Shown here: piece by piece, positions 4,647 to 41,481 of the stretch
Numbering within the stretch: position 1 is the stretch's first letter
Layout of the letters: each line of letters starts with the position of its first letter
From: Jimgerdemannia flammicorona
Lineage: Eukaryota
Direction of reading: 5' to 3'
Assembly (NCBI GenBank): GCA_003990765.1
Contig: RBNJ01000067.1
Location: 1-44,433 of the forward strand
DNA length: 44,433 nucleotides
Program-made: the position numbers and the translations under genes
Notes under the pieces: generated by a model
Seen by the model: only the letters and a program-made list of their open reading frames with translations
What the model was told of the DNA's origin: nothing
Databases searched by the model: none

Positions 4647-6591
4647 CAATCGAGGAACGGTGTTGCTGAGCGCAGCCCAAGTCGGCCTTTTGACATCGAT
4701 GAACCGTCACAAAATGTCAACTCCAAAATCGTTTGTACGTTTAGATTAAGTATCTTTTGGTCGATCGGGTAGTCGGTGAATGTTTGCTGACCGGGTTCAA
4801 CCCCACGCGAAGCCAAAACAAACACAGAACCGCTTTAGGAACTCAAATATCAGGTGCAAAGGATGTAATACCGCGAAGCTTGACCAATCCAAAGAATTTG
4901 AGTACGCAGGCCTCAAAATCGATGCGAAAGAATTCACAATGGCCGTAACGACCGATCGATAACTAGCTCTGACGACCGAAGCTGTAATTGTCGGGTTGCG
5001 ATCGATCAGTTTGATTTCAGGGGGGGTGACCCATCCGATTTGAGAAGCTGAAAATAAACTCACCAAATAAGGCATTACAAGAAAAAAGTTACCGCGGACT
5101 GCGTAAACTAAGATTAGAAGGACCAAGATAGCTTATGAAGAGTTCGATAAGATATGCGGCGAGGGTTGAATCTGGCGTCAGCGGAAACTATGAATAGCTC
5201 GGCATAGAACAATCTATTACTTAATTGATTATCATAAATAGCAAGATTTTATAAATTACACCTAATATATTAATACCATATAAAATATAAAATAGGAACT
5301 ATCTAGATTACAACTGAATAGTAATAAAAAATTAGCAGAATTTATTAATCTATAATATAGTTAAAAATATTGTTATAATATTTTTACTATTATTATAATT
5401 TTAATTAAATAAAATAAAAAGCTAATATATTATTAATTATATAAAGTTTTTAAGCTTAGAAATATTTATATATTATGATATACAATATATATATCTTTTT
5501 TACAGAATACACTGCTTAATATACCACTTAGTTATCTTATATGCTATTTATCTTTTTGTCTAACAATGTTCTGGCTTAATGTTCAGTTTAACTGCTGTTT
5601 AATTTATTTATATTTCTCATTTATATCAAGTTGAAGTTTATGTATTATTGATGTTTATATATTATAAGTCATTGGTCACATAACTAGATATTCAGAATGG
5701 TGAAAGGTGAAAGTACATATATTGTGGATTCTGACATACTGATGGTTATCCTGGTGTTCTTTAGTGAAGTTTTCTGGCAAATTGGCAATCTTATATCTTA
5801 AATTCCATGTAGTCTGAGGTCTTATATCTGATTTTCATAGTAGTGGTTCTTAACTGACTGTCTTGTATTCTTTTGTGACAATTTTTATAGTAGTGACAGT
5901 TCATATCTTGAGTTTTATAATGATTTTTATATCAATTTCTAAGGTAGCAAGAGTAATTTCTTAACTCTTAGAAGTAGTGTATTTCTTTGTAAATTTCTTT
6001 TACTTCAAACTATCTGACTGAAGTTTATTCACTCTTGTTTTGAAGATATTTATATATATTTCTACTATATCTTAGTAGCAAGATCTAAATATACTATTGG
6101 TTTACTGGTAGCAGTACATCAGTGGCAAAGACTATACTAATGGGGTAAGATTGGAATACTTTTATTCTACACTACTGATAAAGAATGTTTAAATAATAGA
6201 GAAGACTATTCTATATTTATTCTATACTGCTGGCAAAAAATATTAATCTCTATCTTAAAAGATATAGTACTTTTTATCAGTAGTAAGCAAATTATCTTAC
6301 TGAGTTATAATTTCATTATACTACTCTTTAAAGAGGAGAAGTACTGACCAAGAAGTGAGAAGATAGAATAATGACCAATTATCTTCAATAATATTTTCTA
6401 ACCCTTATATAGCTTGAAGGCAGACTGAAGATTGTTCGATTCTTTGTTGTTCTTTTTCTAAGAATTCATCAGTTTGAACATCTTGAGATACTATGGTAAT
6501 TTTAATAGTAAAGTCTTGGTGTTCTTCTTCTTCTTAGATAGAAGCTTCTGGGACTTCTTAGTTCAGTTCCTATATAACGTAATGTGACATA

Positions 6592-7114
6592 TAGTACTCT
6601 GAATGAGTTAATTCAGATAGGATTTGAATCTCATCCAGATTAACTCAGATAAGATTTGAATCTCATCTAGATAGATTTGAATCAACTATTGTTTTGATTT
6701 CTGAATTTAATGATCTTTATATCATTTGAAAGCTCTTAATAAGGTCTTTCTAATGATACTAAGAATATTAAAATTGAATTACACATTATCAAGATATTAA
6801 GAAAAACATTCTATTTAATGAAATTTCCAAAATTAGTAAATTAAATAATTTCCAAAATTAGCAATTCAGATGGTTTCCTTTATAACTCAGCAACATATGA
6901 TCTAATTTCAATATTCTTAGTATCATTAGATAGGCCCTATTAAGGGCTTTCAAATGACATTAAGATTATCAAATTTGGATAATTATTTATTGAGTTATTG
7001 ATATAAACATTTAATTGTCTAATTTGAAAATCAACATAATAGTTGATTTGAATCCATCCAGATCTGAATTAATTCAAATCCAATTTAGATTAAATTAACT
7101 TGTTAGGAGCACTA
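6592..7114. mobile_element. hAT-like MITE (523 bp) with a long internal inverted repeat
   Basis: TIR TAGTACTCTGAATGAGTTAATT / AATTAACTTGTTAGGAGCACTA. 8-bp TSD gtgacata (6584-6591) / gtgatata (7115-7122). ~6700-6790 is an inverted copy of ~6895-6980. Termini are related to the MITE at 1961-2270. Confidence 0.8.
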
Positions 7115-7483
7115 GTGATATATAACTAATAGAGTAGTGGATGGTCATAGTAGCTTCTATAGATGCTTTGATAGTAATAGATAGTTCTTCAAAGATTTCT
7201 ATAAGACTTATTAGATGGCTTTAATAGTTGTCTTGGAGAGGAGTGGTATAGAAGTCTGGTAGAGTGGATTCAATTTGTTGACTTTCTATAGTAATATGGT
7301 TGCTTCTGATATAATCAATGACTTTAGCTTCCATCTAATTGACTTCTTTAGTAGTGAGATAGACTATGTTTCTAGCAGTAACTCCTTATAAGTAAGCTAT
7401 AGCCTAGAGTATATGGCAGAAGATTTGGTAGATATGAAGGGCTCTCTTGATCAGCCAGTTGATAGTTAATAGTTCAGCAATAA

Positions 7484-10400
7484 ACACTCTCTCATTACCT
7501 TTCTCTGGTAATATTCAGATTATACAAACTTCTGACAATACTCAAGACATTATTTTTGGAGAAAAGATAATAGCAATATAGTAACTGACAAGTATTCTAA
7601 GATATATACTAGGCAGGGCAGCCCTAGTATATTTAACTGGCAATATATGGAGAGAAGTCATAGCTTGGGGGAAAGTATGTAGGACTTACTGGCAGAAGAA
7701 TATAGAAGGGGAGAAGACAGTATTAGGAGATAGGAGACTGGGAGAATAAGTTTTACAGATAAGGTAAAGAAGAGTCATCTGATGACTAGACTAGAGAGCT
7801 GACTGAGGAAGGGTAAGGAGATGGTGAGGACTGTAGAAGCTGATGGAGCAGCCTATGGTGGTGAGAGCAGTAGGGCTGAGAGAGTAGTGACTGGAGAGAG
7901 TGGGACTGCTGATGGTAAGTAAACTGCTAATCTGGAAAAAAATTCAGATATAATGGCTGATGATAGATCTAGACAGAGGGGGGGTATAAGGCTTAGAGAT
8001 CTGGTAGATAGTGTAATGGGCCTGGTAGCAGTACTATTACTCAAAAAATTGAGATCAGAATTTACTATCATATTATATTTCCAAGACTTGGTAGTGATGG
8101 TAAGAATGATTCTGAGACTAAGGTGAAGAGAGCAGTATTGGTGAAATTCTTAAAGAGTCTGAAAGAGGTGAAGGTCAGCTTTGAGAAAGAGGATATACTA
8201 TTGGAAGTAATAGAGAAGAGAGTGGTAGTAGGAGAGGTAGTGATCTCTATGACCCAGTGCTTGCACTGGAATCTCTGAGTAGTACAGCTGATAGTGCTGA
8301 ATATTTCTATAGTATTGAAGGAAATTGCCAAGAGATTAATTGTTGAGGTCATCAAGGAGTATAGAGAAATTATAGATATTGAGTTTTGGGTCTGGGAGGA
8401 CACCAAATTCAGGACTAACAATGTAGATATCAGAGTGTAGCTGGTGGGCAAGAAGAATATAGGAAAGATAAGGAACTGGCCAGTGGTCCTCAAATGGAGA
8501 TCTGTGGAGTACAAGTTCTTGAGAGTGAAAGGGATACTAGAGAAAGAAAAGAACTTGCTAAAGGTATTAGAGGATCTAGCTAGAGCTATAAAGAGGAGAA
8601 AATTAGCATAGAAGGAGTTTGAGGTCAGAATAGTTGTAGAGATCATAAATGGCAAGAAGGTGTAACTGGACTGAGCAGCCTGGGAGAGAGTATAGAAGAG
8701 GTACATTCAGAAGAATCTATTGGCTAAGTTGGGAGAAGGGGCAGCTAGGGGAACTACCACTGATGAGGCTAGATCAAGAGTGAGTATCTGAGTAGAAGAG
8801 AAGAAAGCAGTACCAGAGGAAATCTCAGGTGGGGGGGAAGACATAGGACTGAGTATTATGGTGGAGGATGCAGAGATGATAGAGGGGGAGAGGAGTACTA
8901 GGTGAGGCTGAAGGATATGATAAATTGCAGGATATACTAGAAGTAGATTGAGATGAGTTAATAAGGAGAAATATAGAGAGTAGACAGGTAGAAGGAGAGA
9001 AGAGAGTGATCTAATGAGTGGTAGAGGCTGAGGTTGAGGAGAAATGGCTATAGAAAACACTTGAGAATATGGTAGCTGAGGAGCTAGAGAAAGGACTTCT
9101 AGATACTGAGTGAGAGATACTGAAGTAAAATTCTACAGAGTGAGGAGGTGCTAAGAAAACTCTGTGATGAGATAATAGTAGCAATACTGAAGATTAAGAC
9201 ATATCAGATAGATGATGATAGAGAGATGATACTTCTGATGATTACAAATAACAGAGCTATATATATATAGAGCTCAAAGAAAGGGCTGGCTAAGTGGCAG
9301 GTAGTGTGTGAGGAGTACTGAACAGAGATAGAGGCTGTGGATAGTATAGATTATTAGGAGATCTTGGAGGCACTAGAGACTCAGTAGAGAGAGATAGATG
9401 AACTAGAGGTAGAGAGGAATCTTGATGTTACTGGTGATATAGCAAGTATGGAATTATAGAGTAGATAGCTATTCTTTAAATAACATTATTTAATATAAAC
9501 AATATAACTAGAATATCATCTTTGAATATCAATGGGCTATGGGGAGCAGTGAGGTGTCAAAATATCTTTGGATAGCTGAAGGGAATGGAAGCTGATCTGT
9601 TCCTACTATAGGATAGTGAGTGTGATAGAGACTTAGATATTCTGAACTAGATAAAGGAATGGGGTGGTGTGGCTATTTGGCAAGGATGTGTGGGCATTTT
9701 GGTTAGGAAGGGTAAGAGGGATATTAGAGATATTGGATACTAGAGGAGTAGAGTAGAGTGGGGAGTTTGGAAGAGACCAGGCTAGAGATTCTTGATAGTA
9801 GAGTCTTATTATTATCCAGCAGAGAGAGGGGAGAGAGTGGAATGGATTCAAGGGCTACAAGAGTCTGGAGCATTGGTGGAGGCAAGAATTGATTGTCTAG
9901 AAGGAGACTTTAATATAGTATATAATAAAAAGATAGACAGAACTAATGGGGAAAGAGAGATAGCCAGTAAGAGTAGTAATATGGAAGCCTGGAAGGAAGT
10001 CAAACATCTGAGCTCTCTAGTGGATATAGAGAGGATTGGATGGAGAGATTGTAGAGTTTTTATCTATTAGATGGCAGGACTGGACTCAAGAATTGACTGA
10101 ATATTGACTGCTGATTGCTGGAGAGTTGATATCTAGAGAACTTTGGAAACTATTTAGTATCTGTAGTCAGATCACTGGGGTCTTCTAGGAGAGGGGTATT
10201 TTGGGAAAAGTAAAGAGGGACCTGGACATTGGCAACTGAATACCTCTTTACTAGAGGAGGCCTCTCTATGGGAGGTATGGGTGGTAGATATTAGCTCTAG
10301 GGTTTTTGGTTAGCAAGCAGAGAGGCTGAGAATTGGGGATTACTAGATAAGATTGAAATCTGAGATATAATAGTACTGGGGAGAGGCAGGAAGGATATAG

Positions 10401-13248
10401 AGTGCTCAGAGAAAGAAGCAAGTAAAGTAGATCTCTCAGAGATTGGCAGGGTTATTAGTGATTTGGACAGATCTACTGAAGAATAGTAAGAAAGGAAATT
10501 GGTAAATATAATAAATCAGACTAGAGGTAGAGAAGCTGAAGGATATATTAAGACAAGAGAAGGATCTATAGATTAAGAGCATAGTAGCCTAATTATAGTA
10601 GTAGAGATTGGAGGAGGGAGAATAGTCTACTAAGTTTTATCACAGCTTCTACAGATAAAGAGGATATGGCAGCAGTGAGAGAGAGTTTTGAATGAGGCTA
10701 GGGTGTTGGTTGTTAGGATATCAGAGATTCTGGATCAGTTGAGCAGATAGTGGAGACATCTGTAGAGCAAGGAGGATAGAGGGGTAGGGGTACTGAATAT
10801 TGACAGACACTTGGAGAAATAGTACTCTGATCTGGCAGTAGGCTTAGGTGATCTTGGTACTGCTGTTTAAGAGGAAGAGATTCAGCAGGTTCTGATGATA
10901 ACAAGCTCCAGAATAGTACTAGAAGAGGATGACTTATAGTGGAATTTTTGAAAGAAGATGGCAAGAGTTGAGTTAATTCTAAAGAAAATAATGGCAATGT
11001 GTGATTAAGTGATAGACTTAGGGGCATAGATTGGGAGGCAGAGCTTAGGTCTTATAGCTCTGCTGTTTAAGAATAAGAGGAGAAGAGAGGAGTGGAAGAA
11101 CTGGAGACTGATCATGTTTCTGAATATAGATTGCAAACTGATCATAAAGATCCTAGTGGTTAGGCTGTAAAGAGTGGCTCAACAGGTTCTGGGGGCTGGG
11201 CAGAGAGGATTCATAAGGAGATATCTGATTAGAGACAGGACAGTCTGGATGTATGGTATTATTAAGAGAGCTCATACTACTGAGGTAAATAGAAGGCTAG
11301 TTTTCTTAGACCAAGAGAAGGCCTATGATAGAGTCTGGCAAGTGTGGTTGAAAGGGGTGCTAAAGTACATTGGGGTCTCCCCTGGGATCCAGCAGGCCTT
11401 GGTTGGTCTGCTGGAAGGAAGTTGGGCAGCAATTATAGTGAATAGACACAGAGGAGTTTCATTCTCTCTGAGCAGAGGAGTGCTGCAGAGGGATCTACTG
11501 TTCCTGATTCTGTATACACTGTCTCTAGAGTCTTTTTTGGATAGAATATGATATAAGGTGAGAGGATTAGATATTCTAGAGGTTAATTGGAAGGTGGGAG
11601 CCTTCACTAACAATATGGTAGTTGAGCTGGAGTCAGTTGAGAATATTACAATACTGAAAGGTATAGTAGAGTGATATGAGGGATACTCAGATACTAAGCT
11701 CAACTGGTATAAGTGTGAGACTTTGGTGTTGGGAGGAGAGATAGTAGGTAGGGATGTCATTGGAACAATTGTCTCTGTGAGAGAGGCTGTATACTATCTG
11801 GAAATCTACTTTTTAGTATATAGTTCTTTGCTGCTGTATAAGTGGTGGGAGCAGCAGTTGGTGGAGTGGGGAAGTACTCTCTTGGAGTAGAGTGGTTGCT
11901 ATATATATATCTCTGATGGGAAGAGTGATAGTGTTAAATATTTACTGATTGCCTAAGCTATGGTATTTAGAGTACTATCTGAACTTTCTGACATAAATGA
12001 TCAAGCAATTGTTGAAGATAGTCAGGACCTGAATATAGGTAGGATAATAGAGTCAGATTGGTTAAGAGGTATTGATCTGGCCAATGAACTGGAGAGGCCT
12101 GGGTCTGGTGGATTTTCTCAAGTATCTTCACTGCTTAAAAGTATGATAACTGAAGCAAGTAAGCAAGTTGAGGGATAGAGAGTGGGTTCCCCTCATACAG
12201 AGGATGTGGAAAGCCCAGTTCTCCCCCCAGGGTACAACTGGGGATCTTTTATCTCTGGTGGTATTGGAGGAGAGTCAGAGGATGCATTATAAGGTATTCT
12301 GATAAGGAGTGGCTAATAGGGCACACTATATTGATCTCTGATATCAGGATATTGAGAGAGAGAAGTAATAGAGACCCCAGATATAGAGGTAGAACTACCT
12401 TCTGTTAGGTAGGGTACCAGTGGATAACTTCTGCTTAGAGGATAGCATAGAGTGTCTTTGAAAATACAGAAGAGATCTGTGGCCTGAGATATGGTAGGGG
12501 GTAGGAATTAGAGAGGTGTGGAACTGAAACAGTATTTGGCTGTAGGGTAAGCAGGTGGCAAGATGGATTCCCCCTAAGTTCTGGATAGTATAGTGGAGAT
12601 TTCTATAGTGTAATGTTATGTTGAACTACCAGATAGATTATTTGGTAAAAGGAGACATCCAGGAGTATAAGGAGTATCTGAATATCAGATAGGAGAAAAA
12701 AGTAATACAGACTCATGAATATTGATTAGGAGAGTGTAAGGTGATAGGTGACTTTTGGAGAGAGATTGAGATATGGCTGAGATGACACCCACCAGAGTTA
12801 GTGGTAGGAGAGAGATGGGGTGACCTCTGGAGGAGATTGGTGGAAGGATTGGGAGATGAGTGGTTGATATTAAGATGGGTACTAGTGATTTGAGTTGGGC
12901 TTACAGGACATTGGCTACATATATGTATTTGAGGAGGATTGATAGTTGACTTTGGGGGTAAGAATAGCTAGATAAGAGTGGCTGATGATGAATATGTTGA
13001 CTGAGTGGTGGAGGAGTAGAGGTACTGGTGGGAGATACATATCAGAGATAATTAGTAGAGATAATCTGTAGGAAGAGTGGGGGGAGAATTGGAGTGACTA
13101 GGGGGTTGGCAGTGTTTTGAGAGAATGATGAAAAGAAGAGAGAGATTCTGAGTGAGGTTGAGTAAGGGGGTTCATTTGTATTAGTATATTATAGACAGTT
13201 TGGTAATAAAGTAGAAGTTCTTATAACTATAAAAAAAAAAAAAAAAAA
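7484..13248 (+). mobile_element. Full-length decayed L1/Tx1-like LINE, copy B
   Basis: ORF1 remnant from ~7578, then ORF2. AATAAA at 13205 and poly(A) at 13231-13248. 18-bp TSD ttaatagttcagcaataa (7466-7483) / ttaatagtttagtaatga (13249-13266). Confidence 0.93.
9495..13150 (+). pseudogene. LINE ORF2: APE endonuclease, reverse transcriptase and C-terminal CCHC remnant
   Basis: APE motifs SLNINGL, DLFLL*D, GDFN, SRID, SDH and the L1/Tx1-type GPGHWQLNTSLL. RT motifs NWRLI..LNIDCK, QRGF, DQEKAYDRV, GVLQRDLLF (<-GVPQGDPLS) and AFTNN (<-AFADD). Many stop codons. Confidence 0.9.
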
Positions 13249-14049
13249 TTAATAGTTTAGTAATGAGATCTTCCTGGTCATATTCTTGGGTTTCATTATA
13301 GAGATAGTATTCAATCTCATAGTTATATCAGAGAGTCATTTGATAAGTAGTGTTCTTGAGCTGCTATATCATTATATAGTAATAGTTAATAAAATGTTCA
13401 AGGTCTTTGATATAGAAGTTCAGATTCTCAGTGGTATCAGGGCACCAGGTAGCCATTTTGATAGCTTTGAGGATAAGACTCTTTAGACTCAGTAAAGGAA
13501 TACTGTGGCAGAAGGTCTGGTTAGAGCAGTAGAAAAGAGATATTATATTCTTATTTGTTCTAATTCTTTTTAACACACTGGGTCTAGGTTCTTTAAATAA
13601 TATAGCCTTCATTTTAGCTCAGATTATTATTATTCCTTTTAGTTAGATCATCAGACAGTATCATCTAATTATTATGTCATAAGGTTGGGGTTAACATCTG
13701 ATTAAGGTAATTATGAGATTTATCATCATTGTTCCTTATTTCAGTATTATCAGTTATATACATCACATCTGCTTCTTACAAAATTAGAGCTATTCTTAGT
13801 AGTGATAGTTATATAGGATTGAGTGGTCTTAACTCTAGAGATGAGCAGAATGTTAGTATATTTGCAAGAACTAGCCATCCTTATCTAGGGTGAGAGCTCT
13901 CATTGTTATGGCTGGGGATTTGAACCTCTTAAAAATAATATTCTCTATAATCTGAGACAATTTTTAGTAGCAACATCTATCATATAGATGAGCTTGAGAA
14001 TGATTCCAATGATATTAACTTCTTGAGTTCCAGATAAAGTATCTATTAT

Positions 14050-15300
14050 CCTCTGATAGAGGTGATACAGATGAAGTTCAAATGTGTTTTACTTCTCTTT
14101 AGTAGTAGAGTATTATGTAGTTGCAGTGTATCTTGGTCTTGAGTAAAAGTCCATCCATGATCTTGAGCTAGTAGGTGTAATTTATGAATACTTAATGTAT
14201 AAGATAAGGTCCTTTCTATTTTAGTTCAAGTTTGGTACTCCAGTTTCCTTTAATGATGGTATAGTATACCAATACTTATTGTTCAATAAGCAGGAGTTTA
14301 AGGTTGGCTTTGTAGTCATAGTACTTCTTTTGTCATTCTTGTGCTTTGATAATAAATCCTCATACTTGCTAGTATACTTCATGTAATTAGGTGATCTCTT
14401 CAGTGACTCATTTTGTCAAATTTAGCTAGATTGGTTCAGTGGGGTCCTATACTTCTTAGCCATATATTAGATAGAAAGGAGTTTATCAAGTAGTAGTTAT
14501 TTTTGAAGTTTGAATACTGAATAAGATTACTGGAAAATATATAGATACCCTAGTTAAGTTAATCTCAGGTTCTACTGAGACCTTACTTAATGGTCTGGTT
14601 TATTCACTCAGTAAGTCTATTTATCTGAGAGTAGTAGGCTATTGTTAGCTATAGCTTGATCTTGAAGTTGCTTGCAAAGGTTTTTATAGCTTTATTGATA
14701 AATTCCCAGCCTTAGTCTGTGATGATTTTCTTAAGAATACTATAATGGCTGAAAATTTCATTATACAGAATTTCAATAATTATCTGAACATTGGCAGTCT
14801 CAATGGCAAAGGCTTCAGGCCATTTTGTCAAGTGATCTTCAATAGTAAGAATATAGTATCTTTCTTAACTGATTACTGGGAGAGACCTAATAATATCTAT
14901 TCCTAGTCTTTGAAAGGCTCAAGCTAGTACTGTGATCAGTATTAGAGATACTTTATTACTTAGCTTTTATTGATAGCTTTGGCAGATATTATATTGTTGA
15001 ATGTATGTTAAAATTTGTTTTTTCATTTTAGGCTATCAGTATTACTTTTTAATTCTTACAATAGTGATTCCAATTTCTTGATATATATTCTGGCCATAGT
15101 TTGTTATCAGGATTTTAAGTATTTCTTTTTTTCTTGAGATGCAGATATACTGATCTCCTTTTACTCTCCAAAGTTTGTCATTGCCTTTCTGAATTTTTTT
15201 AAAGTTTCTTTGAATAAATAGCTTGTGGGCTGGCTGAATTTCTTTCTTAAAACTCCTATGGTACAGACTCCAGATGAGGGTGAGACATAATTCTTGGTTC
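14050..15300 (-). pseudogene. Ty3/Gypsy integrase (rve core plus GPY/F tail)
   Basis: FQRLGIDII..LP...YILTIEDHLTKWPEAFAI...IITD*GWEF at ~14700-14920; KGPYLIH at ~14200. No chromodomain seen. Confidence 0.9.
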
Positions 15301-15399
15301 ATTTAGAAGAGCAGGAAGTAGCCTTTACTTATAGGGGCTCTTTCTCTTCTTATTGATTCTGTGAGATTCTTGACAGGGTATCAATATTAGAATTCTTAG

Positions 15400-15780
15400 T
15401 ACCTTTCTTGTAGATAATAGTGAACTAGTATTCTTGCAAGGATATAATCCACCTAGCAAAGATTTTTAAAGGTTCTGGCTTATTAAACAACTATTGTAAA
15501 GCTTAATAGTCTATAATGAGAGCAAATCTCTTTCCTAGGAGATAATGTTGAAAATAGTCTACTACTTATACTACTGCTAGATATTTTAACTTAGTGACTC
15601 CATAGTTTGCTTGTAATTTATGTGTAACTTTGCTAGCATATTCGATAACATGCTCTCTCTTTTGGTCATCTTGCTGGGATATAATTGATCTAAGTTCTAG
15701 AGCTAAGACATTAGTTGCTAGGATGAATAACTTGTTGAAGTTTGGTTGAGCCAGAATAGGTGCTTCAGTAAGAGCCTTCT
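15400..15780 (-). pseudogene. Ty3/Gypsy RNase H
   Basis: APILAQPNFNKLFILATN...VIEYASK...NYGVTKL...HYLLGKRF...ARWIISLQEY. Confidence 0.88.
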
Positions 15781-15899
15781 TAAGTATATTAAATGACTTC
15801 TGTTGGTCTTCCTTCTAGTAGAATAGTTGGTTCTTCTTAGTAATATCTTATAGTAATACTGTTTTATTAGAAAATCTTGAGATAAATTACTAGTAGTAA

Positions 15900-16560
15900 G
15901 ATACTAATATGAGAAAGAATAGAGTCTCCTTTGCTGAGATTAGTGTTGAGTAGTTCTTGACTTTCTCTATCTTATAAGGGTCAGTATGGGTTTTTTGAGC
16001 TGAGATAACATATCTTAGATATTTAACTTAGTGTTTTCTGAAGAAGCATTTCTTAGTATTGAGTCTAAGTCCCAATCTTCAAATAGTGTCAAATACTTCA
16101 CAGAGGTCTTGTAGGTATTATTTGAATATTTCAGAGTAGATGATTATATCATCTATATATACTAGTATATTTCTTCTAATAAGGTCTTAGTAGATATGGT
16201 TAATTATTTATTAAAATGAGACTAGTGTATTATAAAGTCCAAATGGCATACAAAGATATTTATACTATCCTCATCTAGTGATAAAAGCTGTCTTGTAGAT
16301 ATCATTCTTAACAATAGATATTACTTGAAATCTTTGAAATTGGTCTGTAATAGTTATATATTTGGCTTTTCCAAGAGTATTAAGGAGGTCATCAATTCTT
16401 GATAGTGGGTAGGCATTCTCTATAGTGATCTTATTGAGTTTTCTGAAGTTTACAACTAGTCTTCATTCTTTTTTCTTAGTACTATAATTACTGGTAAAGC
16501 CCAAGGGCTTAATGAGGATCTAATAACTCTATTTTATAATATTTCTTCTATATGTTATAT
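15900..16560 (-). pseudogene. Ty3/Gypsy reverse transcriptase
   Basis: PWALPVIIV...NFRKLNKIT...YPLSRIDDLL...KTAFIT...MPFGL...VYIDDIIIYS (YIDD at 16148-16159). Confidence 0.95.
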
Positions 16561-17179
16561 TCAAACTCAATTAGGTAGTATGGTGTTTAGTATGGACACT
16601 GTCAGGTTGGTTTTATATCTTCTGTATATAACATGCTCTCTATATTAATATGGTGGGAAGTTATTATATATAGTGATAAATATATCTTTATATTCTTCTA
16701 TCAACTTTTATATCTATTGTTACTGATTCTCTATTAGAGTTGTCTCAATATTGATGGCTTTAATTGCTGAGTCTTCCTCTCTAATACTGTCAGTCTTACT
16801 GGAGAGGACTTGCTGTTTTCTAAGAATTCAAAGACTTCTTCCTCATAGGTGTCTATCAGTGATTCAAAGTATACTAGTATTGTTTCTTTAGAAATTGTTA
16901 CTATTTTGAAGTCCAAATTTCTGATAGGAATGTGAATTGGTAATATCTGATCATAAATTCATTTTTCAGCTAAAAGGAGGTGATACTTTTCTTGAAGTTC
17001 AATTGAAGGCTTAAATATCAAATTATTGACATCTTCTGATAGATATATGTCTAGGCTTCTTTGTTGATAAGGCTAAAGGATGACATCTTCTCTTGTTCAA
17101 ATGGAGTGGCAGAAGTATGGTTTTATTTAATAGAACTAAGCTACTATTACTAAGTGAACTTCAATAAGTGGTTGAGTTC

Positions 17180-17580
17180 TATTGATACTTCTAAAGCCTC
17201 CTTGTCCTCTCTTGGTGCTGCTGAATTGGTCTACTTCTTGGATAGTTAGTTGTGATGTCTTGATGAATAGAATCTGACAGATAGCTTCTAAGGAATTAAA
17301 GACTTAGTGATTTCTGCTACTGTTGTGGATGATAACCTTTAGTGGGCCTTGATAATCTTGGCCAATAACTCCTCCTTCTACTATAACTTCTTTGGCTGCC
17401 AGAGACGATCTTGATACCAGTTGACCATAGTATCCAGATAATATAGTAAGTATAAGTTGAATTAAAAGTCTTTGTAGTTCTGAGATACAATATTGCTTAG
17501 TAGAAAAAACAGAGATCATATCCAACTGATCCTTCTATTTGTACAAGAGGAGGTTGTGCCCAAGATAATAATAACTTGAC
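17180..17580 (-). pseudogene. dut: Retroelement-encoded trimeric-type dUTPase between protease and RT
   Basis: All five motifs in order: GSVGYDL; GYYGQLVSRSSLAAK; GGVIGQDYQGPLKVIIHN; AICQILF; RGQGGFRS. One frameshift after motif 1, plus stops. Confidence 0.92.
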
Positions 17581-18699
17581 TTGAATAACTAGCTGAGTTT
17601 GAGGAATAGTACTTCTGTGGTTACCATTATAAATGAGAGCTCTATATATTCTGGCTTGAAGAATAGCCAATATACTCTAGTCTTTAGATTTCTGGTATAA
17701 TAGAATTCTGTTCTTCCAAGTAGATCTAGAGCTTCTATGAAGGCAAAGGTAAGGTTGACTCTTTGATTGTCTTGGTAAGGATTGCAATACCAGTAAATGA
17801 TTACAAGTAATTCTAATAACAGATCCCAAATAGAGGTCTTGCTCTTGGCTTTACAGTCTCCTTCATGGTTGATCTGTTTGCATTTTCAACAGGCCTAGTA
17901 AATTCAGAGTTCTTGTAGAGTAGGATTCTTTCTCTTAACTTGGCTCTTATATATAGACATTATTACTAAGGTAAATACTTCAATATTTATACTAATAATA
18001 GATAAAGATCTTTCTACAATTATAGTGTCCTTGCTTGACAAATATCTCATTCTGCTGCTTGACTTTCTTACTTATAAGTATCTCCTTCAATATTTCATAA
18101 GTAGGTAGGATAATCTGAAGAGTTTGGGTGATAGTATGAATATTATTGTTATCTCCTTCAATTGTGAGAGTTTTCAGAGATTGGTGAGAAAAGACCTTCT
18201 GTTCTTTCTTATAGGGTTTCTTAAATACCTTTAGGATTGGTAGTTGTATTTGTCTGAGTACTAGACCTCATTTTAACTTATCTTTGTCTTCTATTAATAG
18301 TATTGAAATCTTCTTAAGGTCAAGAATTTGACAGTTACTGTAATCATCTCTTAGTGAGTGGAAATGATTATAGTGTTCACACATGCCTAAGTAGAAAGCT
18401 CACATGATTTTGTTTTCCTTCGGTGGTGGTGGTTGTATGGATGGTCCTGCAAACTCAAGTATTACTTGTTCACTAATAGCTCATTAAATACTTTCCTCCA
18501 GGTTCTCAGTATCAACAACTCCAATAAAAGGATCTTCTTGACCACTTTCAGAGTTTTGAGGGACATCAAAATCACTTCTTAGTTCTTATATGAAATTGGT
18601 TTTGCTTTTATCTTCTATAGAGATAGATATAACTTTATATTTTTGCTATTTTGTTTCAGAGGTCTGACTTGCTTTTCTTAAGAATTCTCTTGATTCAAT

Positions 18700-19050
18700 T
18701 AATATCTTGTACTTCTATCTATAGAAGGTGAAGACTAGGAGCTATTTCTTGATATCTATATTGATTCCAACTCAGTGTAACCAATCAGTTCCTAAGATCA
18801 GATCATAAGAGGTTACTGGAGTTATCATGGCTTATAGTATATTGAAGTAGACTTTTCCAACTTGAATAAATATATCTCTGACTAATCTAAGAGAGATAGA
18901 TGCTGATCCATCTGCTATGATGACTCTTGCTTTAGTTTCTTCATCAATTCTCCATTTAATCCTCTCTAGTATTTACTGGGTAATAATGTAAACTGCTGCT
19001 CTAGTATAAATAAGGATTCTGGCATTTTCACTATATACTTTTCCATTGGT
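18700..19050 (-). pseudogene. Retropepsin-like aspartic protease
   Basis: ARILIYTRAAVYII (<-LIDTGA), IIADGS, YDLILGTDWL. Confidence 0.8.
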
Positions 19051-19699
19051 GAGTCTTGTAGATTGATATTCTTTACACCAGTTTTTATAAACTATATGGA
19101 TAGTGCTAGGCTCTAGTATATATAGTCCTTAAACAGAAATTCTCTTAATATCTTCTTTGGCTTTCTTTAGGAATTTTCACCTAACTTCTGGTATATTCTT
19201 GAGAACATGTTCAAATATAAGGCCTATATTCTGTATATAGATATATTTCTAAAGGAATGCTACTTCATAGAGTCTACTATTTCTTCAATGTCTAGATCTC
19301 TTATAGTAAGCTCTCTCATTTCTATTGGGTATTTTATTAGCCAAAGATTCTATACTCATGTACTCATCTTCTTCAAGATTAGGCAAGAAAGTACTTCTTG
19401 ATATTCTTGAAGACCTGGCCTTTGGTTCAGAGGTATCTCTTCTGACTTGCTTGTCATTTTTCTGAAGAGTATCTGAGAAGGAGTGATCATATCTTGGGTA
19501 CTTGCCTGTGAATACTGTCACTGATAGTGGTGGTAGAAGAGGGGTCCTAGGAGGTCTTTCTCATCCTCTGGTCTGTGTTGGGGCAGTATCTTAAGTCATC
19601 TTAGAAGGGAAGGCTTCATAGTAGATATCCTCTTAATTATGAGACCAGGCAGCTTCTTCCTCTATTTCTTGAGTCTCTTCATCTATTTGAATGAGGTTG

Positions 19700-20935
19700 A
19701 CATTTCTGTCATTGGGTGGGGGTTGTTTCTTTGGGCAGAACCTCTAAATATAGTCTTGATTTCCACAGTTGAAATATGTTAGAGCATAAGTACTTATTGT
19801 TGATGGATCTATAGTTATAGCTAGTAGGGCCTGAGTGGAGCTTCTATTGTCTTGCTATCAGTAGTCTGATTTACTATCATGGCAATAATCTTACTGTCTT
19901 CCTCCTTAGTTCTTTAGCTGAGTGACTGCAATGACTAAATTCTTTATTTGCTTAGTAAGTATTATTATAAAGTCTTCTTAGACTCTTGATAAAGGCTGCT
20001 GCTATTGCTGTTGCTATCTGTACTGAGTTGAGATTGCAGATAGGGATCTTGTCTGATAGTTGGCCAGCTGTACTCTTAGGTAGACATTCTCTTGTTCTAT
20101 AATCATTCTATAGATTCTTAGAGTTTCTACTTAAACTGGTTCTTGCTACTCTTGTATCTGCTGAGCTAATCTATAGTCTGCTTCTCAACACCCTTGTGCT
20201 CTAGTAACTTGCTGCTCAATACTTCAATAATACATTCTGATAACTTGTCTCTGAAGCTCTAGAAATATTTCATTGAAGAAGACTAGAGCTAATTGAACTA
20301 TAGGTTGCAAGCTTGCCTTGATCATCTGGACTTAGATTTGATAATAGAAAGCCTTAGGGGTTTTATTGGCAGCTTGGCTCATATAAGTCAAAGCTTCTTA
20401 TACTTCTTATTGATACTTGAGATTATTGAATTAAGTGTGGAATTAGATCTTATAGATATTATATCTGTCTGCATAATCTCCATTTGCTCAAAGATTGTTA
20501 GTTTGTTCTGTTGTATGGATTTTTTCTCCAATTTGTCTTGCTTGGTTGTACTTCTATAGGGCAGGACCTCTTAGGAGTGATTCTACAATTCTGAGCTTTC
20601 TCTGGACATCTCACTGCTTAGCTGTTACTTATACTTTGATTTCTCTAAGAAATTCCTCAATATCTTCACTGTCTGTACTATAGAATTTCTGAAGATAGCT
20701 CATCTCTGATTTGTTTTCACTATCTGAGTCTGGTTCTGGAGTAGAGTTTCTTAATAATGCTTAAGATAGAGATAGTGGAGATACTTGATAAACTGATAGT
20801 ACTGATAGGAGACAGTATCTTGGTGAAGGTATAGAAAGTCTAGCTCTTCTAATTAAAGTAGGTATAGAGGTTCTTAACAGTGGTAGTTCTCTGATTGAGT
20901 GATAATGATTACTAAATACTGAGATTCTGAGAGTT
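19700..20935 (-). pseudogene. Gag of element Y (capsid plus CCHC knuckle)
   Basis: LQKFYSTDSEDIEEFLRE...LLRGPAL at ~20550-20700. Knuckle TYFNCGNQDYI*RFCP (<-CFNCGNQGHIQRFCP) at ~19730-19780. Confidence 0.8.
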
Positions 20936-20939
20936 CCAT

Positions 20940-21215
20940 TCAGTATTGTGTAGCAAGACCTTAATTTCACCTTTGAATCTTTGGTCTATAACTTTTCTAA
21001 CTACAGAGTCTCTCTTCTTTAGCCAGACCACTTTTTTCTATAAGATAGATATAGATTCCTTTAGAGACTTCCATTCTAATATCTGTACTAATAGTCAATT
21101 ACTTGCCTGGTTTGATAGTTACTTCTATACTAGAGTAGAGATCATAGCTAGCATTAGATTTATATACTTTGTTTGAAATTTTTGCAATTATATAGAATCT
21201 TTTAATCTTGATTTT
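20940..21215 (-). pseudogene. dut: Second dUTPase (motifs 1-3, truncated), in frame with the upstream Gag knuckle
   Basis: KIKRFYIIAKISNKVYKSNASYDLYSSIEVTIKPGK*LTISTDIRMEVSKG...EKSGLAK / VVRKVIDQRFKGEIKVLLHNT, i.e. DAGYDL, xSGLA and GVIDxxFxGEI after reversing G->A changes. Confidence 0.85.
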
Positions 21216-21324
21216 TTTAGAGATTTCTTTGAGATTATCTCCTATCATAGTGATGGTATGTGAGAAGAATAATTGTTTGTTTATATTAGTCTTCTTGTTA
21301 GGATATTTATGAGATATATGTTCT

Positions 21325-21332
<8 letters not shown>

Positions 21333-21409
<77 letters not shown>

Positions 21410-21559
21410 TTACTTGGACTTTGTCATTTATTACCATTCTCTCCTCCTACTACTCAATATTCCTAGAAAGTTCCCCCCCTACTCTCTTATATTTGAAAAC
21501 TACCTTGTCACTCATTACTCTAACTTTCCTCTCACTCTGCCTATATATTTTCTTCACCA
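21333..21559 (-). mobile_element. 5'-truncated LINE end (~150 bp plus a long poly(A))
   Basis: Minus strand ends tggtaataaatgacaaagtccaagtaactt-(A)n, like copies B and C. TSD atatgttctctcttttt (21316-21332) / atatattctctcttttt (21560-21576). Confidence 0.8.
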
Positions 21560-22048
21560 ATATATTCTCTCTTTTTGTAGTAGAAGTATGCTCCTTTCTT
21601 TATAAGTTCTTCTATTTTCTTATCAGATAGTTTTTTAAATCTATATATCTTATGGTCTTGTGGACTCATTCTGGAGTTTGTACTTCTTCTTGAATTGATA
21701 TTATTTATCTTTATTGTTATTTCTGTTGTCTCTTGGTCTTTAGGCTATAAGAATAGTATATATATTCTAGTAACAGCTTATCCTAAGCACTATTGCTCAT
21801 ATAGACAATTATAGATTATCCTTATTTACAAATTTTCTCTGATAAATATCTGGAGATAGTACTGAAGAAGTAAGTAGCTTGGGTTCTTTTTATAATCTGT
21901 TCTTATTAGCTGTATTTTACTTCTATAATATTCAGAAAAGTTTCCAGTCTTATAGTAAAGACTTTGAGATTTTCTTTTCCATCATTATAGAATTAAAGAT
22001 TCTTAAGCTTAGTTCTGACTTCAGCAATATAAGCAGAGCTATAGAACT

Positions 22049-22080
22049 GAGTCCAAGTAACTATAAAAAATAAAAAAAAA
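22049..22080 (+). mobile_element. Micro-insertion: terminal ~15 nt of the LINE plus an A-rich tail
   Basis: gagtccaagtaactataaaaaataaaaaaaaa flanked by a perfect 10-bp TSD ctatagaact (22039-22048, 22081-22090). Confidence 0.85.
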
Positions 22081-23576
22081 CTATAGAACTATTAGATAAT
22101 TAGTTTCTTTAGGCTTATAGTAACTAGGTAGACTTTATAGTTAGAGCAATTATCTTCTTCTTCACTTATATTGATTTTAGCACAGGTTTTCCAAATGAGA
22201 GGATGTACTGATAGATTATACTACCACTGGATAGCTGTATCTGTAAAATGGGTAGTGATATTCTCTACTTATAAGCCTGTAGTTATATATATAAAAATCT
22301 TCAATCTTATAGTATTTGTTGTTATTAAGAGTATTGTCTGAGTTCTGATTATTATTCTATCTATTAGTATAATAATTGGTATCAACCTATTCTATAAATA
22401 TTATTACTTGGTCTACTTTACCTTTAAATAAAATAAAGCAGGAGCATTTTGTAGATTTGTTTATTTCAATACTGAGATAATAGACTTGAGTGAATATAGC
22501 TATTTAGTCAGCCAATATTGCTATTTTGTTATCTGCTGATATTATTCTACTATCTCTATTATTTATTTAGTAAGATAGTTAGAGTTCTTCTTCTATTGTT
22601 ATGATATATTGATCACAATTTGGAGTTAACTCTTCTATGATATTACTGAGATAGATGAGCTTATAGGCTAGTAGTTTTGATAGAGTAACTATTGGATCTG
22701 TCATAATTTTTGATAGGCTTAATATTCTTGGTAGTAGTTCTGTAACAGTACTGAGATCACCAATGTCTAGTTCAAGTATCTCTTCAATTATTCTCCTAAA
22801 TCTAGATAATGTAGTAGAGGTCTTACTAGATTCAGTAGCTTGTAGTTCTAATTGCTAGATTATTCTTACTTATGTATAGAGAATTTAATAATAGAAGTAG
22901 GATTTCTTTTAATTAATATAGTATCTCTTGTAGTTCAGAAAGGCCTTGACTTTATATTAGTAATTATTGGGGAGAAAGTTCAAAAAATGTTCACTTGTAG
23001 TCTTAATGAATTCTTATATATATTTCTCATAAAAGTGTCTACCAACTAGCTTGTTGAGATTCTCCTTAAGTTTAGTAGTATAGGGGACTTCTTTGTTGAG
23101 TGTGAGGAAGATATTGAATACTTTTTAAATGGTTTCATTGTTGAGTTTATCAAACTCTTCTTAGCTGGTATAAGTTTTGGTCTACTTAATTATGATTCTA
23201 TTAGATTCTTCAGCTTGAGTCTCAGGAGTATCTAGGGTAAAGGTGCTTCTTAACTATTACTAGCAATGTTGTCAATATTGACTAATTTTGATTATCTGTA
23301 GTAGGTTCTTGAGAGAGGTTGCTTGTGGGTATAGAGTAACTTCCATTACTATTAAATTATAATAAAACTATATGCTGATAGAATTAATATATTATAGATA
23401 ATCAAACTGACTATTGGCCCTAAGTTCTGAGTTTCTATAAAGAAGCACTGAGTTCCAATTGTCTGTTACAGTAGAGTCTAGATATCACTTTCAGATTCTT
23501 GTACTGATAGAAGTACCATACTTATATTTTAAATTGATCAGGCTTAGAATTATTAACAAGTTAGGTCGGAGAGTTC

Positions 23577-23785
23577 TGTGATAAGAATACTGTTTTATTC
23601 TTATATTCAGGGAAAGCAGAGTTGCAATTACAACATACTTAGTACAGAAAGTATTTATACACATTTGAGGCTATGACTAAATATAGTGCACTGGGTATAT
23701 CCATATGTATTTATACTATTTTGAATAACTATAACTGTTAGTCAGAAATTTCCAGTAGCTCGTAGGTATATAACAATTTGTTACA
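23577..23785 (-). repeat. Candidate 5' LTR of element X
   Basis: TGTGA...TTACA ends; minus-strand TATAAATA (~23650) and AATAAAA (~23595); lies upstream of gag X at the edge of the CpG-free block. No partner LTR or canonical PBS found. Confidence 0.4.
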
Positions 23786-23955
23786 ATACTATTTGAATAA
23801 GTTCAAATACTTTCTAATTAATCTTAGATGATTATATATTATTAAAAAAACGTTATATTCCAATTTTATTTACACAATAATCATTACAAATAATCTCTAC
23901 TTTTGTTTTTGGGTTGCTTTTATATAATAAATGTTTTTGTATTAATTGTCCTAAT

Positions 23956-31900: not shown

Positions 31901-33253
31901 AATCATCATGTATATACAGGCGCTAATTTTATGAACGAAGCACACGTGCTTGATCAAACAAAATCGGCGCTAGCAAGTCAAACAGGAAAAAAACATAAAT
32001 CGGCCAAAGGGCAGCCCCAAAATGTTAAGGTACAAGGGGGAACACGCGATACCAAAGAAGTGTTGGTGAATACACGGATTGATACCTTCTCGGAATAATG
32101 CCACAACGCGTTTACTTGTTATCAACGTTTGTATGGCCCCTGATGCAATTGGCATGACCGCCGATCCTAACCACTTTGTACAGGGGTTAGGCGCGCCCCG
32201 CGCGCCCAACGTCGTTCTTGTTGCACTGTCGTTGAAGGTGATGATCTGGGCGTGTGAATGGGGAGATCGACTGCGCTCTACGTCATTTTGTGACGACGGC
32301 TGGATCGTAAGGTTTTTTACGAATCCCTCAGTGCTCGCCGTTGCTTCTGAAATGGACAGGCGATCTCCATTTTCAGTCATGTCCCCCCATTTTTCGAACC
32401 CTCGCAACTGGGGGATATCTAACGTTCCATTTATTGCTTGAGAATTCTCTCGTTTATCAATCAAGACACTTCCACGATTCTCTTGTACTCTCTGAGGCTC
32501 TCTTTAGGCGAGAATACTTGGCGAGTGCCACAAAATATTTCGTGGCGTTGGTTACTCGAAGAGTTGCCAAGAATTCGCTGGAAAGAACTTTCCGTACTAT
32601 ATTCATGATTAGGTTGGATTATAATATTCTACATTATTTATTTTCGTTACAATTCTCTTGGCCTCACTTGACGTCTTGAACATTCAAGATTAAACCCGTG
32701 CGTCAATTGGATCTTGTATCATCCTCGGAGAACATATGTAACTTTGAAATTGAAATATATATTTTATCCAAGGTCGTTTTAAATTCTAATATAATCGATA
32801 TATGGAGATCATTTGGTATTCTACTACATTTTGTTGCTTTTGAGGAAACAAGAATGTGAGACGCGCAGGGCAATTAGGTACCATAATTTCATGGCAATTG
32901 TGTATTGTAATTTTTAATCGTGGACAGGCTCCTCGAAGTTTAGCGGCACGATAAGCTTGTAAATTGGTCGTTCAACAACCGATGCCCGTCCCAAAAATAA
33001 AATAAAAATAAAATACGCTTATCTCAATTTGCAGCTCGGGGTTCACAGAGGGAGTGTTGGCATCACGTGAAGAGTTTTTACACCCGCGACTTTTCCAACG
33101 TGGCTCAGCTGACTCACGAATCACCTGTGTTGCTGATACCCTTCTTCTATCGCCTCTTCATTCACGCATTAACTTTTGTAATTCACTACTGTTCTCTCGA
33201 CTACATAACCTGGGTTGTCTGTATGGTCGTTATGTGGCTTATTCTTTCTTTTT

Positions 33254-33421
33254 CCAAGCTACACGTCCGCCCGGCCAAGCTACACGTCCGCCCATCCAAG
33301 CTACACGTCCGCCCATCCAAGCTATACGTCCGCCCATCCAAGCTATACGTCCGCCCATCCAAGCTACACGTCCGCCCATCCAAGCTACACGTCCGCCTAT
33401 CCAAGCTACACGTCTGCCCAT
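33254..33421. repeat. Minisatellite, 8 x 21 bp (CCAAGCTACACGTCCGCCCAT)
   Basis: Eight head-to-tail units with no spacers; this explains the overlapping repetitive ORFs in several frames. Confidence 0.97.
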
Positions 33422-35361
33422 CCATCCCACCCACTCCGTGTCCCACCTCGCCCTCATCCCTCTCCTTCGTGATGCTGGACCGCCACCATTCCACCTGGAT
33501 CGTCTCCCGTCTGCAATGTCTCAAGCAGCATCGGGTTCGTGTGCAATAGAGAATTTGGGAGACAGGATGGAAGAGGTCCGTGGCGAGGACCTTTGACGTT
33601 GCGGGTGAGGGATTGGTTGTTTGGAGCGAGCAAGTGTAGGCGCGATGAATTGTTATTGTTTGGGCCTCACCATTAGTACAGTACTAATTTGTCACGACAT
33701 CGCCATCTGCCTATTGATAACAACCATTCCCTCTCAGAAAGTTCGCATGTGCTTCGACCGAACGAAACCCACCTATTATTCGTGGAATATGTCCAAAGAG
33801 GCGGGGCTCCGACATCAAGAACTTTAGGAGGTAGGGGGATGTGTCTGTGATTCGCAATGGCAAGAGTGCCATATGCCAGCTGGTTTAAGGTGAGTATAGC
33901 GGTTTGGCGATCGTCAGGGACGTGTGTTATGAGATAAAACGGGAGGAGTTGGCAAAAACCTGACCGGAGATGCAGAACTTGGCCTGGGTGGCTGATCGTT
34001 CGCAAAAGAAGTGTATCGCGGCCTGTCAAAAGGTCTCTGTCGTGCCTGGCGGGATGCTCAGTGTGGAGTTTCATATATTCCATATCGTTATGCTCGTCCC
34101 ACTCTCTTTGATCACCAACGTATATTTACAATGTACTGCCCACAATAAACATCCGATTGTTTTCAACCTGCAAGAGATTTCTCTCAAGTTCACGAGGCAA
34201 GGGTTAGGGCGTGTATATAAAGGTATCAGCTCTATCTCAATATATAACGTTATAGGTATACGGAATTTGTATAAATGTTATTCTAGACGTTTCTGGAATT
34301 GAATATCTTACTATACTTAAATAAAAAGGTGATTCTGAGGCAATTATTGATTGCGGCGAGTTTGGTACATGGAGGAAGGGGTTGCAACATACACAGCTAA
34401 ACTTCAAATTTTCCTAAAGCATATTAACTCGTGGCTGAATACATTTCTGTGTTGCTCCTCTCAAATTCTCCAGAAAGCAACTGTAATAATAATAATAATT
34501 ACTGAAGATAGGTGTGTGCATTGATATAAAAGACTCACTATATCCGGGTACTGAAAACTGGGGATGCGGCTGGATATGCAATTGATTTTATTTTATTTTA
34601 TTTTATTTTTTGCTGGGATCAAGGAGTTCTAATTTGTTATTGATATTGGCCATCTCATTACTCTGACCTAGTAATATATATTTGGAAGTATACTACTCAG
34701 CCACTATTTATATTTACATATATTTTTTATAATATTCATGTGATTTTATCATTTCACTGAACAAACTCACTTTAAACAACCTCAAGGTTTGGGTCAGAGC
34801 CTGATATTATAGTCCATGAGATTACCAATATTAATAATCCAACTTTCATATTACTTTTAGTAGATTTTAATTTTGACTTATATTGAAGGTTTAGACCCAT
34901 CTCTATAGAAGTAATCTGGACCTATTCAGTCAAGGTCATGTTCTGCTTCAGAGGTTTGGCTAAGGTACATGTCCTCTTGTTACTAATGATATTATCTAAG
35001 AATGAGCAGAAATGAGTAAATATATATAGATAGTAATCTTGATTCTATCATTCAACTATATATAATATTTACAAAGTTCTAACATATCAAAAAAATTCAG
35101 CTCAGTTAAAGTAGTGTTCTGCTTCAGATATTTAATTAGAGCATATATCTTTATTAATTACTATCTCCAAAAACTAGTTAATATTTGAATAAGAGTAGTG
35201 AAAATCAATATAACTATTATAGACAAAAATACAAATAACAATCTGATAATAATAATAATAATAATAATAATTCTTTTAGTATAAATATATATTTGTTCTC
35301 ATATATATCTTTTTTACTTACAATCATAAAAAAAATTATAGGTTGATATAAGATATATATT

Positions 35362-35393
<32 letters not shown>

Positions 35394-37336: not shown

Positions 37337-37540
37337 CCCCAGCTGCCTGAGCACCTTCAATCACCTCATAGACTCAGGCAGTTCCATCTCAGATTAACTG
37401 ATCACTTACAAATCCCCTCTGCTCTATTCTCAGTACCTCCCCAGCTGCCTGAGCACCTTCAATCACCTCATAGACTCAGGCAGTTCCATCTCAGATTAAC
37501 TGATCACTTACAAATCTCCTCTGCTCCATTCTCAGTACCT
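37337..37540. repeat. 102-bp tandem duplication inside the RT region of LINE C
   Basis: 37337-37438 and 37439-37540 differ at two C/T positions; the region is single-copy in LINE B. Confidence 0.93.
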
Positions 37541-40232: not shown

Positions 40233-40240
40233 TTACTGGC

Positions 40241-40298
<58 letters not shown>

Positions 40299-40309
40299 TA
40301 CTGGCCAGT
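40233..40309 (-). mobile_element. Pure poly(A) insertion with TSD inside ORF1 of LINE C
   Basis: ~50 T flanked by ttactggccagt (40233-40244 and 40298-40309). Copy A has the empty site (gtcgccggccagtccc, ~546-561). Confidence 0.85.
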
Positions 40310-41481
40310 CCCTTGTCTTCTCCATATTCTCTCTTCTAGCCAGCCTCACCCTAACATTGATGTCTCTAGTTCAGAGTTCAGTACCCTCTCAGACTCTGAA
40401 CCCAATGTCTATAATCTCTCTATATTTCTTGACCACCTCTACAATCAACTCTCTGATCCTCTCTCTTGACATTGTAGAAAGGTCCAATACTGTCAACTGC
40501 ACCACCTGGGGGTCATAGTGCATACACCTGGCCATAGGGACCACTACTCCACCCACTACTACTCTCTTCTCTACAGTCTCCAATATTGATGCCTCTCTCT
40601 CAAATCTAACCTCAACCCCTTCTTTCCTCTTCAAGAACTTCACTAAAGCTGCTCCCTTCACCTCCTATGCCACCAGCCCCAGAATCATTCTTATAATTAC
40701 TGCCAAGTCTCAGAAGTACAATGTGACAGCATATTCTGACCTCAACTTTTTGAGTAATAGTGCCAATACTATGCTCATCATACCATCTGCCAGATCCCTA
40801 GACCTCATACTCTCTCTCTACTCCAATTCATCAATAACCATCATATCTGGATTTTTTCCAGATCCCTAGTTATAGTACTATCAGCAGTCATACCCCCAGC
40901 CTCTATGCTCCCCCTCCCTACTATCTGACCCTTCTATGGGAGCCTCTCTCTATCTTCTAGCTGAAGCTATTGATACCTTCCCTAGTCTCAGCCAACTATC
41001 TAGACCAGATACCATCTTCTCCATCTTGACCTTGTCAACAAAGATCATCCTCCCCCCTCCTTGTTGCCTCATTCTGCCCCTCCCTCCACCACTAACACCA
41101 TGGCCCACTATAGAGGGCTTTGGTATCTCCAAACTATCTCCTTGCCTTCTCCCAACCTACTGCCAACCAAAGGCACTACTACCCCCCTAGCTGACATACT
41201 CACCAGTATGCTTATTGCTGTCCATGTTGATAGTCTCCTTTTACCAAAAACATTTTGGAAAGTATTGTCTGAGTCTTGTGTCACCTGAATATTACTGGTA
41301 AAAGATGGATATATATTATTATTATTTATAAATAATAATAAATATATAATATATAAGTATGTAAACAAATACCACTAAATAGAGATAATCTAGAATAGAC
41401 CAGTTTTGCTAACTCATCAGTTGTTGGTCTAAAGCAACCAAGACTGGGCAGCACAGTGCATTTACATCAGCATCTCACACT

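Follow-up and report, generated by a model that had tools for sequence, protein, structure and literature searches.

Contig RBNJ01000067.1 of Jimgerdemannia flammicorona was analysed over 44,433 nucleotides (the window). It carries a decayed LTR retrotransposon, element X, in which a CCHC zinc knuckle is followed by a trimeric dUTPase with no protease (PR) between them (Table 1). The locus raises the question of whether this adjacency is a trait of the element family or an accident of one damaged copy and, if it is a trait, how the dUTPase would be made and whether it would stay joined to the nucleocapsid (NC).

The window copy of element X

The window copy is the dead, truncated 5' half of a Ty3/gypsy element, which afterwards took up a LINE fragment, decayed heavily and underwent a deletion. 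It keeps one LTR only, the 5' one, and the Pol order PR, reverse transcriptase (RT), RNase H (RH), integrase (IN) is not present, as the copy is cut at 20934. The decayed Gag gives a tblastn match at 22291-22524 to residues 214-291 of the intact relative P0002 (E 0.007). Tyr stands at all three Cys positions of the knuckle, that is, at 3/4 zinc ligands. The Pfam dUTPase match (E 3.8e-8) covers positions 4-64 of the 129 in the profile. The domain is broken by a stop (21099-21101) and by a frameshift near 21000, so that motif III lies in another frame, and it breaks off at 20934 without motifs IV and V.

Table 1. Features of elements X and Y in the window (positions count from the first nucleotide of the window).
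Feature	Position	Strand	Remarks
Element X 5' LTR, with approximate ends	23350..23788	-	matches both ends of full-length copy L093
Element X Gag, decayed, with approximate start	21589..23200	-	collinear with X copies
CCHC zinc knuckle, split by insertion, Tyr at three Cys positions	21303..21588	-	
Target site duplication, right copy	21560..21576	.	16/17 bases as in left copy
LINE-type 3' end, 5'-truncated, poly(A) tail of 74 nt, in X orientation	21333..21559	-	absent from 19/19 copies
Target site duplication, left copy	21316..21332	.	16/17 bases as in right copy
Linker of ~30 codons with hydrophobic Thr/Ile tract, putative protease site	21213..21302	-	
Trimeric dUTPase, N-terminal part, motifs I-III, one stop and one frameshift	20934..21212	-	PF00692, E 3.8e-8
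Deletion junction, element X / element Y	20933..20934	.	X copies match from 20934 up, Y copies to 20933
Element Y internal region: Gag, CCHC, PR, dUTPase, RT-RH, IN	13768..20933	-	
Second dUTPase, element Y, between PR and RT	17178..17586	-	PF00692, E 2.8e-19
Y 3' LTR of about 2 kb, split by LINE 7482-13248 and palindromic insert 6594-7115	5474..13767	-	

The knuckle is split by an insert of 227 bp that has all the marks of a LINE-type insertion, namely a 17-bp target duplication, a poly(A) tail and 5' truncation. On the minus strand the decayed Gag leads into a T-run at 21328-21406. In this copy 442 nt separate the first knuckle ligand codon (21588) from the motif I Tyr (21146), and removal of the insert and one duplication leaves 198 nt, which places knuckle and dUTPase in frame. 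When the genome itself was searched by DNA similarity, 40 of 247 candidates were scored and 19 of the 39 non-self matches were fetched as loci; all 19 are collinear on both flanks of the insert and are without it. The reconstruction proposed in an earlier note on this DNA, which excised the fragment and one duplication to join knuckle and dUTPase in frame, is thus borne out. For the non-tail part of the insert, 39 of the 40 scored matches lie elsewhere (at 69-89%), and in 2/5 loci examined (L128, L131) the match runs on into sequence like the window LINE at 11420-13248.

The window has three LINE copies that are related to each other and show a strong strand skew, at 1-1595, 7482-13248 (inside the Y 3' LTR) and 35340-41306, the last interrupted near 40247-40296 by a 50-nt T-run with a short duplication. 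A 21-bp tandem repeat of about 8 units, in which several frames are open, occupies 33232-33462.

The deletion junction and element Y

Element X abuts a second gypsy element, Y, with its CCHC at about 19750, PR at about 18720-18950 and RT-RH at 15190-16550. All 11 Y copies examined extend past the 20933 point with a common 5' sequence of their own, and 8/11 then reach sequence matching window positions 5474-7481, the longer stretches also 13249-13767, which belong to the Y 3' LTR. The downstream half of X was looked for across the window and was not found. The simplest reading of the junction is a deletion, which would have taken the 3' half of X together with the 5' LTR and leader of Y. A nested insertion of Y into X, with the 3' half of X beyond Y, is rejected, as there is no such sequence in the window. 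The lack of PR and RT in the window copy of X is a deletion in this copy.

Two dUTPase placements thus adjoin in one window, after the knuckle in X and between PR and RT in Y. The palindromic repeat in the Y LTR (6594-7115) has inverted arms at 6704-6809 and 6870-6975, is also found in L094, L099, L112 and L130, and is possibly a non-autonomous DNA transposon.

Element X across the genome

Landmarks of X were measured in 53 distinct contigs, 34 picked by protein query and 19 by DNA similarity, with the natural copy L093, itself included, as reference. The distance from knuckle to motif I is exactly 198 nt in 33 of the 51 copies having both landmarks; the two are in frame in 35/51 and both in frame and stop-free in 32/51, in a set that is biased, since choice by likeness in the protein query favours in-frame copies. 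Among the DNA-picked copies (n=19) the distance is 198 nt in 8, 197 in 5, 199 in 2, 196 in 2 and another length in 2. The indels are scattered (no more than 3 copies with a -1 per 30-nt bin), so no common frameshift site is apparent between knuckle and dUTPase, and all copies together have only 5 stop codons over the 67 codons of this stretch. The absence of a protease between knuckle and dUTPase, which the earlier note had read from the single window copy, is a family trait, as is that of a long spacer.

At the four knuckle ligand positions, Cys is kept in 21/51 copies, Cys in 11/51, His in 22/49 and Cys in 10/52, the rest being nearly all Tyr. The CCHC knuckle is real at the family level and is intact in relatives. 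All five dUTPase motif positions are present in X copies, and in L093 the PF00692 match covers 7-125 of 129. In 30/41 copies, Ala replaces the first Gly of the GFG of motif V, which suggests that the X enzyme may have been weak.

The dUTPase is followed in X by a spacer of about 130 codons and then by the protease. In L093 a single tblastn frame runs from dUTPase through PR to RT, with IN and chromodomain-region matches further on, and the order PR-RT-RH-IN was found by tblastn in L093, L094 and L111. The earlier note had proposed looking in fuller copies for PR/RT or a stop after the dUTPase; protease and RT follow, in L093 as in P0002. L111 aligns with the chromodomain regions of the related family W and of P0002. 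In a Pfam scan of the decayed L093, a chromodomain was not detected, only the SH3 part. The LTRs of L093 are direct repeats at its ends, with 80% likeness across 412 columns. Only 9/27 copies keep the frame between motif V and PR, none of them stop-free, and a -1 lies just before the PR active site or near the PR start in 7/29. One ORF (open reading frame) is thus shown less well for X than for W, family Z and P0002.

Stop-rich columns occur all along X Gag and Pol, with TAA, TAG and TGA mixed with CAA, CAG and TGG. As a control, a Trp that is kept in intact relatives reads as a stop in 40/44 X copies, so the stop-rich columns do not mark programmed stops. A programmed stop after the knuckle or after the dUTPase is rejected, as these columns behave as C-to-T/G-to-A decay. 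Between the window copy and the 19 fetched copies there are 1115 transitions and 123 transversions. Throughout the repeats at 5474-23800 of the window and in the X and Y loci, there is strong C-to-T/G-to-A decay, by which stops replace codons for Gln, Arg and Trp; the decay of the repeats looks RIP-like or methylation-driven.

In an RT tree with compositionally biased X rows and no named reference elements included, the X RTs form one group (100/100) and the backbone is open. Across the trees, only the grouping of the X dUTPase with that of P0082 is firm (99/96), the deeper RT and dUTPase branches being open.

Intact relatives and other dUTPase-bearing families

In the genome search for the dUTPase family, 150 of 8265 first-look candidates were scored, all 150 over the Pfam cut-off; these figures are not copy numbers. 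The top 30 loci comprise 28 of family Z, 1 of family W and 1 that is like a stand-alone host gene. Gypsy families that bear a dUTPase are very abundant in this genome, and W and Z are far less decayed than X. Family Z (L114) reads capsid-CCHC-dUTPase-PR-RT over 822 codons without a stop. Family W (L115) has 1804 codons in one frame, 7 of them stops, and this frame aligns to P0002 residues 132-1963. LTR likeness is 95.8% in W and 93-94% in Z.

P0002 is one intact ORF of 1964 aa, with CCHC at 516-533, dUTPase at 566-693 and PR at 826-955, then RT, RH, IN and a chromodomain (Pfam Chromo, E 5.5e-16). It is collinear with X over knuckle, linker and dUTPase (pair E 1e-17) and over PR-RT. The Z region, used as a query, retrieved 67 long proteins, and the 11 scanned with Pfam were 8 gypsy-type ORFs and 3 copia-type. 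Among the 8 gypsy-type ORFs, CCHC-dUTPase-PR is seen in P0001 and P0002, P0003 begins with dUTPase-PR, P0004-P0007 have PR-dUTPase-RT, and in P0064 the dUTPase comes after IN. A profile built from 16 X copies found 7814 matching proteins; 5 of the best 150 extend into the knuckle part, and 4 of those 5 have a CCHC ahead of the dUTPase. In P0082, P0088, P0093 and P0106 the CCHC lies 46-58 residues before motif I. P0082, whose dUTPase is nearest to that of X, ends after the spacer motif described below, on a 2-kb contig.

Pfam recognises the Gag of Z and P0001; the Gags of X, W, P0002 and P0082 have no Retrotrans_gag or Ty3_capsid match. A homologue search with P0002 residues 400-720 returned only P0002 itself and two copia-type proteins, and scanning metagenome contigs with P0002 turned up no locus. 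Many long copia-type (RVT_2) polyproteins with a dUTPase were also seen (P0008-P0063, P0065, P0080, P0081), one from the diatom Chaetoceros tenuissimus. In P0234, from Paraglomus occultum, a dUTPase lies directly before a gypsy RT-RH, so such elements occur in Glomeromycotina.

A Cys/His motif in the spacer

A motif C-x-H-x(11-13)-C-x2-C is present in the post-dUTPase spacer of P0002 (747-766), P0082 (455-474), P0088 (231-250) and W (L115:3660-3830), and X copies carry it in decayed form. In P0001 it stands before the dUTPase (433-450). The motif has no Pfam match and no usable ESM Atlas match, and the top 50 fold matches listed are all dUTPases. It is a possible extra metal-binding module.

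Expression and processing of the polyprotein

The probable best explanation of these data as a whole is that X is a single-ORF chromovirus of Ty3/gypsy type with a packaged and processed dUTPase, of which the window holds a dead half. The Gag-Pol of X reads capsid, CCHC, linker of ~30 residues, dUTPase, Cys/His spacer, PR, RT, RNase H, IN and chromodomain, an order that intact relatives have in one polyprotein frame. The dUTPase would be packed into the particle within this polyprotein and, to judge from its enzyme family, would keep dUTP low in reverse transcription. The element's own protease would then cut at two hydrophobic stretches, one past the knuckle and one ahead of PR. It is rather likely that the dUTPase would be freed in this way as a separate trimer.

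Read by eye, a beta-branched hydrophobic tract lies ~5-15 residues past the knuckle in 8/8 knuckle-then-dUTPase sequences. A like tract, also read by eye, follows the last knuckle in 3 elements that have no dUTPase, and occurs before PR as well. The presence of the post-knuckle tract in elements without the enzyme suggests cleavage there. From their resemblance to gypsy polyproteins, we take these tracts to be candidate gypsy protease sites; a literature search for Ty3 protease sites found no residue-level data. As the whole Gag-Pol would be one frame, RT and IN would be made at the same Gag level as the dUTPase. The idea in the earlier note that the dUTPase is possibly expressed at Gag stoichiometry would thus hold for a 1:1 synthesis with Gag, but this is not special to the dUTPase, since RT and IN share the frame.

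The released trimer has to be weighed against a rival in which NC and dUTPase stay joined after processing, as a nucleic-acid-binding NC-dUTPase trimer that would be convergent with those of MMTV and M-PMV and made without a frameshift. In favour of this rival, the order of domains matches the betaretroviral one (PMC4531489), and the length from last Cys to motif I is narrow (46-58 residues in 7/8 sequences, across two Gag types). P0001, however, has 163 residues there and yet carries the tract directly after the knuckle, so that the tract goes with the end of Gag. The linker is also predicted to be disordered (pLDDT <50 in an AlphaFold2 model of P0088 with 6 sequences, poor overall at a mean pLDDT of 55), and in related elements the dUTPase stands behind PR or behind IN, so the enzyme need not adjoin NC. 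A lasting fusion is thus unlikely, if worth keeping in mind. Equally doubtful is its extended form, in which the lineage would make, with no frameshift, one stable NC-dUTPase per capsid subunit, and after it a C-x-H-x(11-13)-C-x2-C module of an undescribed metal-binding kind, the layout having arisen on at least two Gag backbones in convergence with betaretroviruses.

It is quite improbable that Gag-dUTPase is the first ORF of X, with PR and RT reached by frameshift or read-through past the dUTPase, so that the enzyme would be made at Gag level and above Pol. Several stop-rich spacer columns and the 7/29 copies with a -1 near the PR start would fit such a boundary, as would P0082 and P0093, which end shortly past the dUTPase. 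But stop-rich columns run throughout Gag and Pol and include the conserved Trp read as stop in 40/44 copies, P0082 sits on a 2-kb contig, and P0002, P0088, W and Z are open from dUTPase into PR. Least credible of all, to the point of being refuted, is that the adjacency is an accident of the window copy, a deletion having removed a protease from between knuckle and dUTPase. This copy does have a deletion, and its neighbour Y has PR before dUTPase; however, the deletion sits downstream of the dUTPase start, and 33/51 copies and the intact relatives show the same knuckle-dUTPase spacing.

Relation to known elements

The layout of X is real, family-wide and mostly known, and X is a further dUTPase-bearing fungal-type chromovirus. 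The earlier note suggested that a dUTPase at this position might be undescribed for fungal LTR elements. That is not supported: in Postia placenta, according to Novikova et al. 2010 (PMC2864245), the dUTPase of PosPlaTy3-3 lies at the amino-terminus of Pol, that of PosPlaTy3-4 at the carboxyl-terminus and that of PosPlaTy3-5 between PR and RT. The same text gives earlier dUTPase gypsy cases in Phanerochaete and Tuber (Tmt1), describes most full-length fungal elements as one fused Gag-Pol ORF or two ORFs, and calls the role of these dUTPase domains unclear. PosPlaTy3-3 is like X, by description rather than by sequence, in being a gypsy element with the dUTPase ahead of PR at the Pol amino-terminus, and the PosPlaTy3-5 type is matched by element Y. 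The section of that paper on dUTPase elements has no mention of the Cys/His spacer motif of the X/W lineage. None of the parts of PMC2864245, PMC5408684, PMC3605345 and PMC4974528 (which covers Ty3 frameshifting) within the scope of this comparison states that a knuckle is joined in frame to a dUTPase in a fungal element; the Phanerochaete paper and the element-structure supplements of PMC2864245 lie outside it and may bear on novelty. The new points are small, namely the conserved spacer motif and several high-copy families with the order CCHC-dUTPase-PR.

Single-ORF chromoviruses, including those of beet (PMC3605345), resemble X in having PR-RT-RH-IN-chromodomain in one gag-pol frame (PMC2864245, PMC3605345). 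X differs from the usual ones in its extra dUTPase, its spacer motif and a Gag outside Pfam Retrotrans_gag and Ty3_capsid. The gypsy-like elements Juno, Vesta and TelKA of bdelloid rotifers share a dUTPase with X, but theirs, as described in PMC5408684, lies between PR and RT, and Juno has an extra zinc knuckle after the dUTPase.

In betaretroviruses, NC-dUTPase (MMTV p30, M-PMV) is a transframe product of the gag-pro frameshift that resists proteolysis, according to Hizi and Herzig 2015 (PMC4531489), where dUTPases are said to lower the dUTP/dTTP ratio and tethering of the enzyme by NC is offered as a possibility only ('it may be'). X shares with these viruses the order knuckle, dUTPase, PR, RT and the trimeric dUTPase family, but has no frameshift, one knuckle, a chromodomain integrase and no env seen. 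Of the betaretrovirus-like arrangement claimed in the earlier note, the order NC-dUTPase-PR therefore remains and the frameshift falls away, knuckle and dUTPase being in the same frame in 35/51 copies and open in P0002, W and Z. What the common frame of knuckle and dUTPase demonstrates is a polyprotein. Retention of NC on the mature, protease-resistant enzyme is a betaretroviral feature; the hints that bear on it in X are indirect and come from sequence.

The families described here add to a short list of dUTPase-bearing gypsy elements, and several of them occur at high copy in this one genome, where two placements of the enzyme are found next to each other. With P0002 and other natural relatives that are intact, dUTPase activity and processing become directly testable. 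If NC were to stay attached, these elements would offer an independent test of the idea that NC tethers the dUTPase at the site of reverse transcription.
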